A stretch of 64,000 nt of DNA, from the NCBI GenBank assembly GCA_044352985.1, contig JBILCU010000012.1, positions 45,428 through 109,427 on the forward strand. Reading direction: 5' to 3'. This DNA comes from Bacteroidia bacterium. GTDB lineage: Bacteria > Bacteroidota > Bacteroidia > B-17B0 > Aurantibacillaceae. The notes under the pieces were generated by a model, which saw only the letters and a list, made by a program, of their open reading frames with translations, was not told where the DNA came from and did no database searches. The position numbers and the translations under genes are program-made. Of this stretch, positions 6,298 to 38,272 are shown one piece after another (the first letter of the stretch is position 1; every line of letters begins with the position of its first letter).

Positions 6298-6612
6298 TTA
6301 CAATAGAATCATACTTGGTTCTATATAAATTTTCTTGATATGCAACAGACTCAGTTGCATTACATATTCAGGAAATTTACTAAACACACCATGATTAATA
6401 TCGTATTCTCGCCAAAATTGTTTTTTATATTCAATAGGTAAAAAACAATATTTCTCAGATGGATAAAGGTATTGTATATCTCCCTTCATAACTTTGAATT
6501 GAACAAATTGACCTTTTAAAATTTTATCATTATCAGTTAAAATTTCAGCATTTGAAAAATGCGGGTTGGCCAAATTATAGGGTTGAAATATTTTTTCAGT
6601 TACTAAATTCAT
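6298..6612 (-). CDS. hypothetical protein
   Basis: 104-aa ORF with no recognisable motif. It is the only ORF of this size in its interval. Confidence 0.4.
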   Translation of the reverse strand: MNLVTEKIFQPYNLANPHFSNAEILTDNDKILKGQFVQFKVMKGDIQYLYPSEKYCFLPIEYKKQFWREYDINHGVFSKFPEYVMQLSLLHIKKIYIEPSMILL

Positions 6613-6765
6613 ACTAGAATTAAAATTATATTATTTAAAATTGATATGATGTTTTTAATGTTTTGTATAATAAACATAAATTGAAATTACCATGTTACAA
6701 ATAAGTATAAAAACGATTGATTATATAAGTTAAAACTATGTGTCAATTAATGCAAACAATTAAGA

Positions 6766-6773
6766 TATATTTG
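6766..6773 (+). promoter_or_regulatory. Bacteroidota-type -7 promoter box TATATTTG (TAnnTTTG) upstream of structured element copy A
   Basis: Exact TAnnTTTG match 13 nt upstream of the conserved 5' block of the element at 6787. Confidence 0.35.
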
Positions 6774-6786
6774 ATTATCTATTAAT

Positions 6787-6945
6787 ATTGAAATTGACGT
6801 AGCAAAGACCAACAAAAGTGTCAAGAAATGTAGAAGCCTTGGAGATATTTTAGCATTTGTTTGAAGTTCGCAATTTATTGCGATTGCCTTGGCAATTTCT
6901 TGAGTTTTCTTTGATACTTTCTTTTGTTCAAGCAAAAGAAAGTAT
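6787..6945 (+). ncRNA. candidate structured RNA / structured repeat, copy A
   Basis: Shares identical blocks with 36118-36273: ATTGAAATTGACGTAGCAAA, GAAGCCTTGGAG, TTTTAGC and GATTGCCTTGGCAATTTCT. The blocks are separated by hairpins whose sequences differ but stay paired. It ends in a 13-bp hairpin at 6914-6945. G.U pairs are valid only on the + strand. Confidence 0.45.
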
Positions 6946-7091
6946 ATAAACTTTAAATTTGTATAATTAAACACTAAATAAATTGAAAAAATTACGGCAT
7001 TATTTTACAAGTTAAACAATTATAATTCAATATAAATTACAATGTTTATAGGGGAAAGATTTATGTGTTTTAGTTTTTAAAATAAGATAAA

Positions 7092-7724
7092 TTAAAATGG
7101 TTCCAATTCCTGTTCTTTTAACAATTCAATTACTTTCTCATTACTTACCTGAGTAAAATCATCATAAAACTGCCCAACACTATGAAAATTAGATGGAATT
7201 TGTAGGCAAATAAATTCATCAACTAGTTCTTCTAATTGTATCGCGGTATTTTTAGGTGATACAGGAATAGCTACTACAATTTTTTTAGGTTTTCTTTTTT
7301 TAATGGTATGTATACTTGCTATTAATGTATTTCCAGTTGCAACACCGTCATCTACCAGAATTATATTTTTCCCTTTAATATCTGTAAGTTGTTTTTCACC
7401 CATAAAAAGACTTAGTTTTTTAGTTAATTCTTCTTTAATTTTTTTTGATTGTTCCTGAACATATTCTTCAGATACACCTTTTAATCGTGGATTAATGGTT
7501 ACTCCATGTAACGTTACAGAACCTATTGCAAATTCAGGATTTATAGGATGACCAATTTTTTTAGACAATTCAATTTCAAGTGGAAGTTGCAAGCGTTTTG
7601 CAATTATAGAAGCCACTGGAACTCCACCTCGTGGAATGGCAATTACAATAGTGTTTGTGCCTTTATAAGAAATTAATTTTTTAGCTAATAATTTACCTGC
7701 TTCATCTCTGTTTTTAAAATTCAT
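7092..7724 (-). CDS. phosphoribosyltransferase family protein
   Basis: PRPP-binding motif IILVDDGVATGNT. Size and layout fit type I PRTase-like proteins. Confidence 0.8.
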   Translation of the reverse strand: MNFKNRDEAGKLLAKKLISYKGTNTIVIAIPRGGVPVASIIAKRLQLPLEIELSKKIGHPINPEFAIGSVTLHGVTINPRLKGVSEEYVQEQSKKIKEELTKKLSLFMGEKQLTDIKGKNIILVDDGVATGNTLIASIHTIKKRKPKKIVVAIPVSPKNTAIQLEELVDEFICLQIPSNFHSVGQFYDDFTQVSNEKVIELLKEQELEPF

Positions 7725-32043: not shown

Positions 32044-34218
32044 ATGATAAAACAGTTTTTATTAATTGGTATCATTGCCTTTTCGTCTCAACTTTTCTCC
32101 CAAAAATCTAAAATCACTTTAGAAAATATCTGGAAAGAATACAAATTTATACCTGAACGTTTCGGTGGGTTTAACTCTATGAAAGATGGTATATCTTATA
32201 CTCAGTTGGAAGAAAACGGTGATATCAATAAATACGAATTAAAAACAGGTAAGCTTATTGCGAATATTGTTAAAGCAAACGAGTTGATAGTTTCTGGAGC
32301 AACTGATACAATTAAAGCCACATCTTACTACTTTAATGATGATGAAACCAAAATTATTTTTCCTCAAAATTACAAAGCCATTTACAGAAGATCTGGTACT
32401 GCAGAAAATTATGTGTTTGATATTAAAACCCGAAAATTAGTAAAGCTTTCCGATAAAGGTCCTCAGCTTTTTGCTCGTATGTCTTCAAAAGGAAGTAAGG
32501 TTGCTTTTGTTAGAGATAATAATCTTTTTATTAAAGATTTGGATGCGAAAACCGAAACACAAATTACACAAGACGGCGAATACAACAAGATTAAAAATGG
32601 CTGGTGCGATTGGGTGTATGAAGAAGAGTTTAGCAAAGCAGAAGCTTTTGAATGGAATGCAGATGGCAATAAAATTGCATGGATAAAATTTGATGAAAGT
32701 AAAGTGAAAGAATTTGAAATGCCGATGTATGATGGACTTTATCCTAGTCAGTACAAATTTAAATACCCAAAAGCTGGTGAGTCCAATTCCATTGTAAGTG
32801 TTTATATGTATGATTTGGCAACACAAAAAATCACCAATGTTGACATTGGAACAGAAACAGACATTTACATTCCTAGAATTAATTGGACAAAAGATCCAAA
32901 TGTACTTTCAATTCAACGAATGAATCGTTTGCAAAATAAATTAGAGTTGCTTTTTGCAGATGCACAAAGTGGTAAAACAAAAGTAATTTTAGCTGAGGAG
33001 TGTGATACTTATATTGATATCAATGATAATCTTCGTTTTTTATCCAATAATAAAGGCTTCATTTGGAGCAGTGAGCAAGATGGATTTAATCATTTGTATC
33101 ATTACGATATCAACGGAAAATTAATTAATCAAATTACAAAAGGAAACTGGGATGTAATTGATTTTAAAGGAATAGATGAAAAAACTAAAACCTTATTTTA
33201 TATTTCCACAGAATTATCTCCAAACGAAAGAGATCTTTACAGTGTTTTATTAGACGGAAAAAATAAAGTGAAACTTTCCGACAAAAGAGGAACTACCGAC
33301 GCAGATTTCAGCAGTAACTTTCAATACTATGTAAGTACCTGGAGTGATGCAAATACACCATACAAAGTAGAATTACGAGATAATAAAGGGAAATTAATTA
33401 AATCCTTGGTTGATAATAAAGATTACATAAACAAAATTGCGCAATACGAATTAACAAGTAAAACATTTTTTAAGTTTAAAACGCCTGAACAAGTAGAATT
33501 AAATGGCTGGATGATGAAGCCAGTTAATTTTGACTCAACAAAAAAATATCCTGTCTATCAATTTGCTTATGGTGGTCCGGGAAGCAATGAGTGCAACAAC
33601 CAGTGGGAAATTTATGATTACTTCTGGCATCAGTTGTTGTGTCAGCAAGGTTATATAGTTGTGTGTGTTGATGGAAGAGGAACTTTAGGCAGAGGAAAAG
33701 CATTTAAACATAGTACTTACAAGCAATTAGGTAAATTAGAAACGATTGACCAAATTGAAACAGCAAAATATTTAGGCACGCTGAAGTTTATTGATAAAAC
33801 ACGAATTGGCTTTCAGGGATGGAGTTTCGGAGGTTACCTTGCCTCATTACTCATTACAAAAGGAGCTGATTATTTTAAATCAACAATTGCGGTTGCGCCA
33901 GTTACAAATTGGAGGTATTACGACAACATTTATACCGAACGTTTTTTAAGAACACCACAGGAAAACCCAACGGGTTACGATGAAAATTCCCCAGTTTTTT
34001 TTACCAAAAAAATTAAAGGCAATTACCTATTAATTCATGGCAGTGCTGATGATAATGTACATTTGCAAAACAGCATGGAAATGACCAAAGAATTAGTTAA
34101 AAACAATATTCCGTTTGATCAATTTATTTACCCTAATAAAAATCATGGAATTTACGGGGGTAATACACGTCTACATTTGTATACAAAAATGCTGAAATTT
34201 GTGAAAGATAATTTTTAG
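32044..34218 (+). CDS. dipeptidyl-peptidase IV (S9B prolyl oligopeptidase family)
   Basis: N-terminal beta-propeller region. Catalytic Ser in GWSFGGY, Asp in GSADDNVH and His in NHGI. Confidence 0.88.
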   Translation: MIKQFLLIGIIAFSSQLFSQKSKITLENIWKEYKFIPERFGGFNSMKDGISYTQLEENGDINKYELKTGKLIANIVKANELIVSGATDTIKATSYYFNDDETKIIFPQNYKAIYRRSGTAENYVFDIKTRKLVKLSDKGPQLFARMSSKGSKVAFVRDNNLFIKDLDAKTETQITQDGEYNKIKNGWCDWVYEEEFSKAEAFEWNADGNKIAWIKFDESKVKEFEMPMYDGLYPSQYKFKYPKAGESNSIVSVYMYDLATQKITNVDIGTETDIYIPRINWTKDPNVLSIQRMNRLQNKLELLFADAQSGKTKVILAEECDTYIDINDNLRFLSNNKGFIWSSEQDGFNHLYHYDINGKLINQITKGNWDVIDFKGIDEKTKTLFYISTELSPNERDLYSVLLDGKNKVKLSDKRGTTDADFSSNFQYYVSTWSDANTPYKVELRDNKGKLIKSLVDNKDYINKIAQYELTSKTFFKFKTPEQVELNGWMMKPVNFDSTKKYPVYQFAYGGPGSNECNNQWEIYDYFWHQLLCQQGYIVVCVDGRGTLGRGKAFKHSTYKQLGKLETIDQIETAKYLGTLKFIDKTRIGFQGWSFGGYLASLLITKGADYFKSTIAVAPVTNWRYYDNIYTERFLRTPQENPTGYDENSPVFFTKKIKGNYLLIHGSADDNVHLQNSMEMTKELVKNNIPFDQFIYPNKNHGIYGGNTRLHLYTKMLKFVKDNF
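34076..34214 (+). repeat. left copy of a 139-bp direct repeat (the in-gene 3' end of the DPP-IV gene)
   Basis: 138/139 identical to 34989-35127, at an offset of 913 bp. The single mismatch, 34185 A versus 35098 C, is synonymous. Confidence 0.9.
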
Positions 34219-34271: not shown

Positions 34272-34628
34272 CTAATATGCTTGAATCAATACCTCTGTAG
34301 GTATTTTCAAACTGTTGTGTAAAAGTCTAACCATTTCCAATGTTAATTTTCTTTTCTTACTCAAAATTTCGCTTGCGCGGCTTTTAAGTCCTATAACTTT
34401 GGCGAGGTCGCTTTGATTGTAGCCTAATTGCTCCATTCTAAATTTAATGGCTTCTATAGGATCGGGAAAATCAATAGGAAAGTGCTCGTCTTCATATTTT
34501 TCAATGAGAATACTCAATATTTCGAGTTCGTCACCTTCTTTTGTGTTTTTCTTCGCATCAAATAGTAACTCAAGCCTGTCGAGCGCATGCTGGTAGTCTT
34601 TTTTTGTCTTTATTGGTTTTAAAGTCAT
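34272..34628 (-). CDS. higA: HigA-type antitoxin (XRE-family HTH)
   Basis: Start set at Met28 of the tracked ORF (MTLKPIKTKKDY...), 4 nt after the higB stop. C-terminal HTH segment YNQSDLAKVIGLKSRASEILSKKRKLT. Confidence 0.8.
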   Translation of the reverse strand: MTLKPIKTKKDYQHALDRLELLFDAKKNTKEGDELEILSILIEKYEDEHFPIDFPDPIEAIKFRMEQLGYNQSDLAKVIGLKSRASEILSKKRKLTLEMVRLLHNSLKIPTEVLIQAY

Positions 34629-34632
34629 AGTC

Positions 34633-34926
34633 TTAAATTTTTGTTGCGTCAATTTTATCATATTCCGCGTGAGTTCCAATAAACCTAACCCATACGATGC
34701 GGTATTCATAATTAATTTTTACAATAAGTCGGTATGTGTTGCCTTTTATATTAAACACAACCCTATTATCGGCTAAAAAACTTGCACTTGGGTATTCTTT
34801 TTTTATCCGCTTTGGATTTTTCCAATCTGCAGTATTTACCTCTTGATACCAGGCTTTAAGTTGCTGTTCACTATCAGTATGTTTTACCCAGAATTCCCGT
34901 AATGTCTTTTTTGAAATGATCCTCAC
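34633..34926 (-). CDS. higB: HigB-type toxin (mRNA interferase family)
   Basis: 97 aa, MRIISKKTLREFW...VFNIKGNTYRLIVKINY...VWVRFIGTHAEYDKI, typical of the HigB toxin family. GTG start. Toxin-first gene order as in higBA. Confidence 0.8.
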   Translation of the reverse strand: MRIISKKTLREFWVKHTDSEQQLKAWYQEVNTADWKNPKRIKKEYPSASFLADNRVVFNIKGNTYRLIVKINYEYRIVWVRFIGTHAEYDKIDATKI

Positions 34927-34988: not shown

Positions 34989-35131
34989 TGGAAATGACCA
35001 AAGAATTAGTTAAAAACAATATTCCGTTTGATCAATTTATTTACCCTAATAAAAATCATGGAATTTACGGGGGTAATACACGTCTACATTTGTATACCAA
35101 AATGCTGAAATTTGTGAAAGATAATTTATAA
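34989..35131 (+). pseudogene. detached duplicate of the last ~46 codons of the DPP-IV gene (right copy of the 139-bp direct repeat)
   Basis: Same reading frame and stop position as the intact gene (TAA at 35129-35131). The last codon is Leu instead of Phe. No upstream coding context. Confidence 0.85.
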
Positions 35132-35629: not shown

Positions 35630-35743
35630 ATGGGAAAAGGTGATCAACGTTCTAAAAAAGGAAAAATTGCAGTAGGCTCTTATGGTAAATCCAGACCTAA
35701 AAAAAAATCTGGTAAACCTGCAGTAGCAAAAGCAAAAAAATAA
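35630..35743 (+). CDS. 30S ribosomal protein bTHX (37 aa)
   Basis: Manual translation gives MGKGDQRSKKGKIAVGSYGKSRPKKKSGKPAVAKAKK. The MGKGD..(K/R)GK...G(S/T)YGK.RP(R/K)K pattern matches Thermus/Bacteroidota THX. It is below the ORF-track size cut-off and is flanked by a promoter box and a strong terminator. Confidence 0.8.
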   Translation: MGKGDQRSKKGKIAVGSYGKSRPKKKSGKPAVAKAKK

Positions 35744-35773
35744 TTGATGCCTTAAGGCGAATAATTATTAAAC

Positions 35774-35801
35774 AAAAAGCCGAAATTAATTTCGGCTTTT
35801 T
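35774..35801 (+). terminator. rho-independent terminator after the bTHX gene
   Basis: AAAAAGCCGAAAT-TA-ATTTCGGCTTTTT perfect palindrome with a trailing T-run. Confidence 0.75.
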
Positions 35802-35889
35802 GCATTTAAACAGGTATTTAGAATTTGCTTAGATTCTCTATTAAAATCCACTTAAAAACTCTCTTTTCTAAATTTTGAACTTTCTTTTG

Positions 35890-36117
35890 CTTGATTAGGG
35901 CAAATGTGCAATGCACATTTGAGCCAGGCTGAGCGAAGCAAGAATGAAAAAGAAATCAAGACGCTGCGATACCTTCGTTCCTCACACAATTTTTACGCTC
36001 GCACCTCCCACAAATTCGCTCAATTACCCACTGGATAATTGCCGTACTTCGTGCTGCGCTAAAATTGGCTCACCGCTACTCAGCATCGAGCAGCGTCAAG
36101 GCTTACACGCTATTAAA
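35890..36117 (+). other. GC-rich (~50% by eye) noncoding island directly 5' of structured element copy B
   Basis: Composition contrasts sharply with the flanks. Contains hairpin CAAATGTG-CAATG-CACATTTG (35901-35921). Potential long-range pairs are GACGCTGC (35960-35967) with GCAGCGTC (36091-36098), and GAGCGAA with TTCGCTC. The 71-aa ORF here is not protein-like. Confidence 0.3.
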
Positions 36118-36273
36118 ATTGAAATTGACGTAGCAAAAGCAATTAAAAGCGTTAATTAACGCCGAAGCCTTGGAGGCGTTTTAGCTTTTGATTGCTGGTC
36201 TCGAGCATTGCTCGAGATTGCCTTGGCAATTTCTAGACTTTTTGCACACTTTTTTGGCAATGAAAAAAGTGTG
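36118..36273 (+). ncRNA. candidate structured RNA / structured repeat, copy B
   Basis: Same conserved blocks and hairpin architecture as 6787-6945. It ends in an 11-bp hairpin, CACACTTTTTT-GGCAATG-AAAAAAGTGTG (36245-36273). Confidence 0.45.
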
Positions 36274-36488
36274 AAGAAATTTAAAATTGACTTTTTTAGG
36301 CTCTATATAGTTTCCCCTCAAAAGCTTGAAAGCAAAAAATTCAATTAAACCTATTGATTTATGAGGTCATTAAAACACCAAGAATTTTTCCAATTATTCA
36401 AGTTTATCGCAGATTTTTCTTTTTTGATGGTTAAAAAAAAGAAAAATAAAGTGGGTTATATAACAAAGGTTGTTATAAAAATTTGAAA

Positions 36489-38252
36489 TTATCTTTCAAG
36501 AAGCTTCAGTGCTTCTTTAATTTCAATTCGTGTATTGTTTTTAAAAGCAACAACAAAAGCATCTTTAAAACCTGCAGTTTTAAGTTTTGCCTGATGAACT
36601 ATTGCTTCATCAAGTTTTATGAAATTACCTGAAGTATATTTAAAAATAGTACCCATTTTATAATACCAAACTTGTTCTACATTTTTAAAATAATCAGCTT
36701 TAATAGCTAATTCTTTTTCAAATGAAGCAAATTGAACTTTAAAACAAACTTCCTGATTATTGTTTTTTGGTGATTGAACAATGGAATCTTTTTTATTCTT
36801 ATTGTAATTTTTAATTAGATCGTTTGCAGTTACTTTTTTAGTAGTATCAGTAACACTGCTTTTTTCAAGATCATTTATTTCTGATAATTTTAATTTTGGG
36901 TACTTTTCACCAGGTTTGGTAATTAATGCTTCTTGATATTTTTTCCTTGCTGCATCATATTCGTTCTTGTTCAAAAATAAATCAGCCTCCTTAATTTGTT
37001 GACTGTATAAGGTGTTTTGTTGATCTAAAGCTTTTTGTTTTTCTTTTTCTGCTTTAATTATATCTTTTTCTAATTGGTCAATTTCAGAAAGTTTATTTTT
37101 ACAATACATGTCATTAGATTTTATAATTAGCGCAGCATTATAATCTAATTTTGCTTCACTTAACTTCCGTTCTTTTAATTTAGTGTCAGCAGATTTTATA
37201 AGTGTATTATACTTTTCATCGTTCAAATTTGTGGTACTACTATCTGACTTTTCTTCTTCCTGATTTTCTTTATTTTTTAATTCAGGATGTTCTCTTTCAA
37301 AAACTAAATTCTCATTTTCTAACGGTTCTAATTTGTCTATTTCATCGGTATAATTATCAGATTTGTTTTCAATTTCATTTTTATAATTACGTAAAGCTCT
37401 GAAAATAGAGCTTGCAAGGTAAGTTTGACCTTTATCTGAACCTAAAAATTTTTCTTCAATTGGGTTCGTTAAAAATCCTACTTCCGTTAAAATACTTGGC
37501 ATTGCTGTTCGCCATAATACCCAGATACTTTGTCGCTGAACTCCTTTATCAATTCGGCCGGCTTTATCTTTGTATTCTTTTTGAATGAAGGAGGCAAATT
37601 TTGCACTTTGTTCTACATAAGCACTTGTTGTTAAACTCATGATGATGTATGCTTCATCGCTATTAGGGTCAAATCCATTATAGGTTTTTTCGTAGTTGTC
37701 CTCGAGTAACATGGAAGCATTTTCTCGTTTAGCTACTTCCATTTTACCTTTTTCATTTTTTAAACCCATTACATAGGTTTCCGATCCGTAAGGAATGGGG
37801 TTTACGGTTTCTTTTTTATGAATTTTTCCTTTTTTGTCCTTCCATGTTTTGTAGTGTGTTTTCCCATTTTTATCTTTATAAGTAACGTATTTTGCAGCGG
37901 CATTACAGTGAATGGAAATGAATAAATCGGCATTATTTCTGTTTGCAATTTGAGCACGTTCTTCTAACTCAACAAATACATCAGAAGTGCGTGTATAAAT
38001 AACTTTAACATCTTTTAGTTTTTCTTCAATCAATTTGCCTAATTTTAGCGCAATGGCTAAGGTTACTTCTTTTTCATTATGCACTGCACCGTTACAACCA
38101 GGGTCTTTGCCGCCGTGGCCGGCATCAATAACAACTATTTTAATTCCCTTTCCAATTTTTGGAACATGAAAAGAACTAAAAAGTAAACTTAAACACACTA
38201 TTAACACTACATTAACCGTATTAAGCAAATATTTGTGTGCGTTAGTTTTCAT
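36489..38252 (-). CDS. N-acetylmuramoyl-L-alanine amidase (Amidase_3/AmiC-like) with coiled-coil/TPR-like linker and C-terminal SPOR-like domain
   Basis: VVIDAGHGGKDPG and SIHCNA zinc-amidase motifs. C-terminal FKVQFASFEKE...AFVVAF resembles SPOR. Start moved to the ATG at 38252, because the tracked start is a TTG 3 codons upstream. Confidence 0.85.
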   Translation of the reverse strand: MKTNAHKYLLNTVNVVLIVCLSLLFSSFHVPKIGKGIKIVVIDAGHGGKDPGCNGAVHNEKEVTLAIALKLGKLIEEKLKDVKVIYTRTSDVFVELEERAQIANRNNADLFISIHCNAAAKYVTYKDKNGKTHYKTWKDKKGKIHKKETVNPIPYGSETYVMGLKNEKGKMEVAKRENASMLLEDNYEKTYNGFDPNSDEAYIIMSLTTSAYVEQSAKFASFIQKEYKDKAGRIDKGVQRQSIWVLWRTAMPSILTEVGFLTNPIEEKFLGSDKGQTYLASSIFRALRNYKNEIENKSDNYTDEIDKLEPLENENLVFEREHPELKNKENQEEEKSDSSTTNLNDEKYNTLIKSADTKLKERKLSEAKLDYNAALIIKSNDMYCKNKLSEIDQLEKDIIKAEKEKQKALDQQNTLYSQQIKEADLFLNKNEYDAARKKYQEALITKPGEKYPKLKLSEINDLEKSSVTDTTKKVTANDLIKNYNKNKKDSIVQSPKNNNQEVCFKVQFASFEKELAIKADYFKNVEQVWYYKMGTIFKYTSGNFIKLDEAIVHQAKLKTAGFKDAFVVAFKNNTRIEIKEALKLLER

Positions 38253-38272
38253 GAAAATCAATGATTTTTAAG

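Follow-up and report, generated by a model that had tools for sequence, protein, structure and literature searches.

What are the two look-alike, hairpin-rich segments that occupy unusually long intergenic gaps in a 64,000-nt stretch of a Bacteroidota chromosome (hereafter the window), and do their hairpins belong to a functional RNA, to a mobile piece of DNA, or to a regulator of the neighbouring genes? The window is a chromosome segment with ordinary housekeeping genes and a GC content of approximately 31%. A first-pass annotation, made from the sequence alone, had described the two segments as a two-copy multi-hairpin element with compensatory stem changes, and had put the element forward as a candidate undescribed structured RNA.

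The two segments are members of a dispersed family

Both look-alike segments are real. Copy A spans positions 6789-6945 and copy B positions 36120-36273, and the four blocks that they share are exact in both, with no third site for these blocks in the 64-kb window. The 19-20-nt blocks ATTGAAATTGACGTAGCAAA and GATTGCCTTGGCAATTTCT occur in the 64 kb at the two sites only, even with up to three mismatches allowed (0.01 expected), and the 12-nt block GAAGCCTTGGAG has exact matches in the window at 6833 and 36164 only. When a covariance model was run over the window with its filters off it recovered the two copies alone, scoring copy B (114-nt core, 36120-36233) at 116.5 bits and copy A (111-nt core, 6789-6899, with the layout of copy B) at 107.9 bits on the + strand; scores on the - strand were 23.6 and 15.5 bits. 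The intergenic gaps that hold the copies are as long as had been claimed. That around copy B measures 748 nt, from the end of a + strand gene encoding ribosomal protein Thx (37 amino acids, 35630-35740, identified by tblastn and too short for the list of open reading frames (ORFs)) to the stop codon of a - strand amidase gene at 36489. That around copy A measures 480 nt, from 6612 to 7092, and separates two - strand genes, one encoding a 104-aa protein (6298-6612) and the other a phosphoribosyltransferase (7092-7724).

The description of a two-copy element did not survive a wider search, as 12 further distinct copies were found in Bacteroidota metagenome-assembled genomes (MAGs) and metagenome contigs, so that the segments are better described as members of a dispersed family. 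The 14 distinct copies comprise 13 that were aligned, including the two in the window, and one, L147, which was found in a relative of the window organism outside the pattern searches. Genomes were searched with a degenerate pattern on the conserved loops that proved too permissive, returning at least 116 matches; among the matches listed, L021 and L034 are real, and these homologues come from a Bacteroidetes MAG from Lake Erken and a Flavobacteriaceae MAG. The same degenerate pattern applied to metagenome contigs identified 13 homologues, 10 of which are distinct. No extra or diverged copies were detected by nhmmer or by the covariance model (filters off) in the window and all collected loci, while viral contigs, phage records and plasmid records contained no homologue and gave low-complexity matches to the A/U-rich hairpin only. 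Searching the literature by sequence string returned nothing other than primer coincidences. The carriers are uncultured low-GC Bacteroidota from lake and other metagenomes.

All of the copies are found at unrelated loci. When they were aligned together with their flanks, similarity rose abruptly from TGAAATTG and stopped just past the terminal hairpin, approximately 165 nt further on, and the sequence outside this unit was unrelated.

Invariant loops are carried on covarying stems

The family anatomy begins with an invariant 19-nt segment, followed by a long bipartite stem, P2, that is capped by the invariant 11-nt loop GAAGCCUUGGA. After P3, a short stem of free sequence and length, come the invariant segment UUGCCUUGGCAAUUUC, a linker rich in U and a terminal hairpin rich in A and U. 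Along with the loop at the tip of P2 and the 3' segment, a GUUAA internal loop and the motif UUUUAGC do not vary. On the + strand of copy B, the basal part of P2 pairs 36138-36150 with 36184-36196, the GUUAA internal loop lies at 36151-36155, the apical part of P2 pairs 36156-36163 with 36175-36182 around the invariant loop at 36164-36174, and P3 pairs 36199-36206 with 36210-36217; each of these three stems shows covariation. The linker UAGACUUUUU (36234-36243, U-rich) and the terminal hairpin region of copy B extend from 36234 to 36279 (+), and the hairpin itself has 11 bp (36245-36255 with 36263-36273), a GGCAAUG loop, and a sequence that is identical in L147. In copy A the U-rich linker CUUGAGUUUUCUUUG and the terminal hairpin occupy 6900-6945 (+), the latter with 13 bp (6914-6926 with 6933-6945).

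The stems quoted in the first-pass annotation are present in both copies as it described them, and its report of compensatory changes is confirmed statistically by the homologues for the basal and apical parts of P2 and for P3. Across the 14 distinct cores, 96.4% of the cells in these three stems are paired. Changes on both sides were found for 16 pairs, as compared with 8.5±1.7 in column shuffles (0 of 500 reached 16) and 1-5 in slid-partner controls, counts that overstate the number of independent events because the sequences are few, closely related and in many cases from one metagenome. P3 comprises three subtypes that are unlike in sequence and length, namely UCGCAA/UUGCGA, UCUCGAGC/GCUCGAGA and a 12-bp UAUUUCAAAAAA hairpin; in L120 and L122, P3 has been swapped wholesale for a 12-bp hairpin of other sequence. 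The most direct evidence of selection on folding is the comparison of copy B with L147, which lies at the same locus in a related genome: six of the 13 differences between their cores make up three compensatory pairs. The terminal hairpins of the orthologous copies L127 and L132 likewise differ by compensatory changes. Taken together, the covarying stems, the invariant loops and the compensatory changes at a single locus indicate that each copy is under selection for folding, and a functional molecule that folds would be expected to keep its loops invariant while its stems vary. Copy A looks like a degraded copy; its P2 contains several mismatches, its minimum free energy (MFE) structure is not the family fold, and its z-score of +0.55 is no better than that of shuffled sequence.

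The P2 and P3 cells contain 23 G·U and 2 A·C, and it is this excess that identifies the + strand as the folding strand. The wobble-pair argument made in the first-pass annotation thus stands as far as the strand is concerned; its further step, that the element is RNA rather than DNA, does not follow, because a strand-specific single-stranded DNA intermediate gives the same asymmetry as G·T.

The hairpin AUUGC-CUUG-GCAAU (H3), previously described as an invariant third hairpin, is indeed invariant, but it is one of two possible folds and is excluded by a long-range helix, P1. The invariant 3' segment can either fold on itself as this C(CUUG)G hairpin (36217-36230 in copy B) or pair with the 5' segment as P1 (GAAAUUG.CG..GCAA / UUGC..UG.CAAUUUC; 36121-36136 with 36218-36233 on the + strand of copy B), which closes a three-way junction with P2 and P3. 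H3 overlaps wholly with the 3' strand of P1, and the two are mutually exclusive. The RNAalifold consensus chooses P1 over H3, and for four of five representatives (z -2.5 to -4.7) the MFE and centroid structures are both the three-way junction; this junction is also the MFE fold of copy B when the terminal hairpin is included (z -5.98). As 13/13 pairs of P1 and all pairs of H3 are invariant in 14/14 sequences, covariation cannot decide between the two. Invariant complementary ends of this kind also resemble DNA ends that are recognised by proteins.

The terminal hairpin has been lost from L120, which retains the core, and is present in L117 as a variant with a GC-rich apical extension. A candidate pseudoknot, in which the terminal loop AUCAAG would pair with the linker CUUGAU, is preserved in most copies, but the loop is flipped to CUUGAU in L119, and we set this pairing aside as unproven; the type B terminal loop GGCAAU is complementary to AUUGCC instead. 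L119 (218-400) and L034 are orthologous copies from two assemblies whose terminal-hairpin loops read CTTGAT and ATCAAG, respectively, on an unchanged stem, which is the signature of hairpin-mediated loop inversion. The L034 copy (371-614), which comes from a MAG, is broken by a run of N, with the P3 hairpin sequence misplaced beside the 5' segment, a defect that points to the repeat family as a cause of errors in assembly or scaffolding.

No conserved ORF was found across the copies. The cores are 111, 114, 121 or 123 nt long, and since these lengths do not all differ by multiples of three and the substitutions are paired across stems, a small protein-coding ORF does not account for the conservation. 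A 71-aa ORF at 35944-36159 has no Pfam match.

The family matches no catalogued RNA, and classical mobile elements only in part

The first-pass annotation had recognised no known RNA family in the segments, and a search of the whole window against Rfam 15 at the gathering score agreed, returning zero matches. With the threshold relaxed to E≤10, both copies and three homologues gave scattered sub-threshold matches, none of them consistent. The lysine riboswitch (RF00168) was considered on the basis of a match to copy B (17.2 bits, E 0.038, gathering score 30) and rejected, as it is absent from copy A, L134, L021 and L122. A tRNA/tmRNA scan of the window identified none. The genes downstream of the copies, which are unrelated to one another and in the window lie on the opposite strand, do not fit a generic riboswitch or cis-acting leader.

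The properties of classical mobile elements are found in part. The dispersed copies and the filled and empty sites in relatives, described below, are those of a classical MITE, but the terminal inverted repeats are missing, as the 5' end (TGAAATTGGCG...) is not complementary to the 3' end (...CAAAAGAAAGTA); the sole long-range inverted repeat is the internal P1 (16 nt, 75% complementary). Among the 13 aligned copies no consistent repeat flanks the 165-nt unit as a target-site duplication would, and there is no constant 4-5-nt target at the 5' side of the kind that marks IS200/IS605 PATEs, the flanks ending in ...TAAT, ...TCAA, ...ACTA, ...AATT and others. REP and BIME sequences are GC-rich palindromes of 20-40 nt with a GTAG head, whereas the present unit is 165 nt long, AT-rich and multi-stem; the hexamer CGTAGC occurs in the window copies only, and the other copies have CGCAGC. 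By inspection, the copies also do not correspond to integron attC sites, as their closing arms read GAAATTG/CAATTTC and they are solitary, among housekeeping genes.

Copies lie in segments that are gained, lost and inverted between relatives

In three related lineages, whose transferases are 87%, 77% and 75% identical, only 0-10 nt separate the two genes found on either side of copy A. This spacing places copy A within an AT-rich insertion of approximately 470 nt (6613-7091), absent from these relatives, that splits an operon. Contigs of the same species contain the insert, with the genes 480 nt apart, and copy A is oriented against the split operon. The sequence TTTTAATT was found by inspection at both junctions of the insert, which in an AT-rich context is weak evidence.

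At the copy B locus, the Thx and amidase genes of the relative L146 (amidase 91% identical, 93% DNA identity) are separated by only about 80 nt, and the element is absent. The more distant L147 (87% protein and 85% DNA identity) contains both the element and an adjoining GC-rich module, in a block of approximately 425 nt (35880-36303 in the window) that, by blastn, is inverted with respect to its flanks in L147 and missing in L146. The inserted segments, of approximately 470 nt for copy A and 660-700 nt for copy B, are far longer than the conserved 165 nt. Their breakpoints are ambiguous at both loci, where the flanks are AT-rich and repetitive, and clean footprints could not be discerned.

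The GC-rich module lies on the - strand at 35848-36109, where it abuts the 5' end of copy B, and has a GC content of approximately 50% in a 31% GC genome. Its - strand ends with the family linker CUUGAUUUCUUUUU and a variant terminal hairpin (...AUCAAGCAAAAGAAAG), and L117 has the same variant hairpin and tail after the element. The module is 85% identical in L147, where its GC-rich apical hairpin (35901-35921) differs by a compensatory U-A to C-G change. Two + strand copies of the 10-nt direct repeat CTATTAAAAT, at 35838-35847 and at 36110-36119 directly before copy B, bracket the module; they account for two of the three exact matches to this repeat in the 64 kb (1.25 expected). Neither nhmmer nor the covariance model detected the module as a homologue, and its overall fold is no better than that of shuffles. 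It seems to be a distinct second module that shares this tail and was inserted head-to-head against copy B, and it may represent a second family of the same kind. The dispersal of the family, the empty sites, the inversion and this nested neighbour together indicate that copies move or exchange as small cassettes.

At both loci the ends of adjoining genes differ as well. DNA similarity between the amidase gene beside copy B (36489-38261, -) and its counterpart in L146 (4852-6618) ends at 36504, 15 nt into the gene, and the C-termini differ. As the break in similarity falls within the coding sequence, the gain or loss of the approximately 700-nt block also rewrote the last codons. The last 2-3 codons of the phosphoribosyltransferase gene next to copy A have also been rewritten. 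Inside the copy A insert, the flanks of the element contain short direct repeats (6676-6696, 6978-6988 and 7029-7046), with ATAAATTGAAA repeated exactly and AATTGAAATTACCATGTT at 83%; these resemble the 5' start of the element, TTGAAATTG, and may be chance matches in AT-rich DNA.

Transcription signals and gene context

There is no conserved promoter upstream of the aligned copies, in which conservation starts at TGAAATTG. The -7 box of Bacteroidota promoters is TAnnTTTG at -12 to -5 (PMC9723704), and TGAAATTG agrees with it by eye at six of eight positions; the -33 element is not conserved. A scan for sigma-70-type promoters was uninformative in this AT-rich phylum. The terminal hairpin is not followed by the U-tract of a canonical terminator in any copy, the tails being A-rich or mixed, and the U-rich stretch is instead the linker between H3 and the terminal hairpin. 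A terminator scan found none at copy A, and at copy B it flagged H3 with the linker rather than the terminal hairpin.

Based on simple ORF calls, the element is co-oriented with its upstream gene at eight of the 10 informative loci; L119 and the two copies in the window lie either antisense to their neighbours or a long way from a co-oriented gene. The flanking genes have no common function, and encode PorP, superoxide dismutase, glyoxalase, POT transporters, a TonB receptor, OsmC and EPSP synthase, among others. None of the neighbours scanned beside any copy is a transposase gene. Within the window, no sequence near a start codon is convincing as a target that could pair with the GCCUUGG loops or the 5' segment.

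Function and mode of spread

We put at about an even chance a reading in which these sequences form a previously undescribed family of approximately 165-nt structured non-coding elements, several copies of which are dispersed in Bacteroidota chromosomes, and which serve as multicopy structured RNA (sRNA or RNP) modules carried on small gain/loss cassettes. Judging from sequence, the element would work as RNA and be transcribed on the + strand, usually as a trailer of the co-oriented upstream gene, a mode of transcription that we infer from the 8/10 co-orientation and the lack of a conserved promoter. The invariant nucleotides that the folded body leaves unpaired, in both GCCUUGG motifs, the GUUAA internal loop and the junction, would then be offered to a partner in trans, either a protein or a second RNA. 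In Bacteroidota, the known global RNA binders are proteins of the RRM type. As the flanking genes share no function, the element would not act on its neighbours, and its behaviour would be that of a multicopy small RNA or RNP module, not that of a regulator of the adjacent gene. The FopS family provides a precedent for multicopy paralogous sRNAs in this phylum (PMC11697453). Its copies would be gained, lost and inverted within short AT-rich intergenic insertions, and so spread in the manner of cassettes.

The strongest competing explanation is a selfish piece of mobile DNA that is non-autonomous, either MITE-like or of the IS200/IS605 PATE type; its hairpins would be recognised as DNA, cutting and pasting would involve the + strand, and it would have no function as RNA. 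We regard this as a possible but doubtful explanation. It accommodates the dispersed copies with sharp boundaries and unrelated flanks, the filled and empty sites in close relatives (the operon-splitting insertion included), the inversion of the same block at one locus, and the nesting of a GC-rich module with an exact 10-nt direct repeat against copy B. On this account the 5' and 3' segments, an invariant imperfect inverted repeat (16 nt, 75%), would be comparable to transposase-bound ends, the absence of both a promoter and a canonical terminator would be natural, and the G·T asymmetry is equally expected of single-stranded DNA hairpins. The first-pass annotation had listed a mobile element only as grounds for abandoning its RNA proposal; presence, absence and inversion between relatives raise it to an alternative in its own right, but the terminal repeats of a classical MITE are not there. 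The 165-nt unit lacks inverted repeats at its true termini, the 5' end and the terminal-hairpin end, has neither a constant flanking tetranucleotide nor a target duplication that is consistent across the aligned copies, and sits in inserted segments much longer than itself. Selected folding, as seen in the covariation and in the compensation at a single locus, is moreover unusual for decaying transposon copies, no transposase was present beside the copies among the neighbours scanned, and phage contigs, phage records and plasmid records gave no match. A quite unlikely variant is a mobile structured RNA gene whose fold is part of its own movement or regulation, whether as a scaffold or guide RNA or a ribozyme for a distant recombinase or transposase, or as a portable regulatory cassette, a ligand- or protein-sensing three-way junction in which P1 competes with H3 and its U-tract terminator. 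Compatible with it are the invariant loops, the mutually exclusive and invariant P1 and H3 pairings, the way in which copies are gained, lost and inverted between close relatives, and the GC-rich sister module, which shares the linker and hairpin tail.

Two further explanations assign the element to the transcript of a neighbouring gene. It could be a cis-acting module in the manner of ERIC, BOX or REP sequences, placed in the 3' trailer of the upstream gene, where it would serve, without a dedicated partner, as a terminator, an exonuclease barrier or a site of RNase entry for that mRNA. Most copies do lie 26-125 nt downstream of a co-oriented gene, H3 with the U-rich linker resembles an intrinsic terminator and is followed by the stable terminal hairpin, and unrelated neighbours are what a generic module predicts. 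However, in a generic terminator or stabiliser an 11-nt loop and an internal loop that are both invariant, together with a three-way junction, would be superfluous, L120 has kept its core without the terminal hairpin, and both window copies and L119 are placed antisense to or far from a co-oriented gene, which makes this explanation unlikely. We consider it very improbable that the junction is the aptamer of a ligand-sensing riboswitch in which P1, in competition with H3 and its U-tract terminator, controls read-through downstream. The mutual exclusion of P1 and a terminator-like H3, the invariant junction and loop nucleotides, and the weak lysine-riboswitch match of copy B (17.2 bits, E 0.038) agree with such a switch, but this match is below the gathering score of 30 and absent from copy A and three homologues, and a strong extra hairpin stands between the putative switch and the downstream gene. 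The gene context largely refutes it: no shared function links the genes downstream, which in the window lie on the opposite strand.

Relationship to known systems

The family is undescribed, and the kind of element, a structured, dispersed, small non-coding one, is already known. ERIC (IRU) and the pneumococcal BOX sequences are structured intergenic repeats of 100-200 nt that are mostly transcribed, occur in either orientation and are polymorphic in presence and absence; their paired ends close a multi-stem fold, and their structure is kept by selection. Our elements share with them the dispersed intergenic location, the occurrence in either orientation, the presence/absence polymorphism, the multi-stem fold with pairing ends and the selection on structure. 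They differ in belonging to another phylum, in having no sequence relationship to ERIC or BOX, in combining strictly invariant loops with stems that are replaced wholesale, and in having a body that consists of a three-way junction followed by an A/U hairpin, in contrast to a long imperfect palindrome or an array of A-B-C modules.

Within the Bacteroidota, FopS and GibS of Bacteroides are multicopy paralogous sRNAs with 12-15 copies per genome at scattered loci, some members of which derive from 3' UTRs and for which spread by mobile elements has been suggested (PMC11697453). FopS molecules comprise just two parts, a single-stranded 5' R1 seed and a terminator hairpin after it; they have defined promoters, and the family has reportedly been deposited in Rfam (PMC11697453). 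The present family is likewise a multicopy non-coding one at scattered Bacteroidota loci, but has a body that is either a three-way junction or a series of hairpins, no recognisable promoter and no Rfam match. With MITEs and IS200/IS605 PATEs it shares being short, non-coding, hairpin-rich, dispersed and insertion-polymorphic, and strand-specific folding fits single-strand transposition; it differs from them in its covarying stems and in the lack of inverted repeats at its real ends, of a constant target motif, of a consistent target duplication across the aligned copies and of a known autonomous partner. The Flavo-1 RNA motif (RF01705) and other orphan Bacteroidota motifs of Rfam are structured RNAs of Flavobacteria with no consistent gene association. 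Flavo-1 gave a 13-bit partial match to the terminal hairpin of copy A only (gathering score 42), and differs in size and architecture.

The Bacteroidota are poorly covered by catalogues of RNA families, and the freshwater lineages that carry these elements are uncultured. Clear covariation, invariant loops and several copies per genome make the family a good candidate for a new Rfam entry, and a protein or RNA partner might be found through it. That relatives 85-93% identical in DNA differ in whether the element is present, absent or inverted amounts to a natural experiment on how small non-coding modules spread. Even if the elements were only selfish repeats, they would constitute what is, as far as we found, an undescribed small repeat family of these lineages, knowledge of which helps in strain typing and in avoiding mis-assemblies.

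Additional features of the copy B neighbourhood

A perfect palindrome of 15+15 nt (35773-35802) follows the Thx gene and is probably a terminator; L146 has an equivalent hairpin between its convergent Thx and amidase genes. Further upstream, a 142-nt direct repeat (34076-34217 and 34989-35130, 99% identical) duplicates the 3' end of a DPP-IV peptidase gene and brackets approximately 770 nt that contain an HTH_3 (XRE-type) gene (34272-34709, -). Both L146 and L147 have a single copy of the 142-nt sequence and no HTH gene at this site, and the HTH_3 segment looks like another insertion, approximately 1 kb from copy B.
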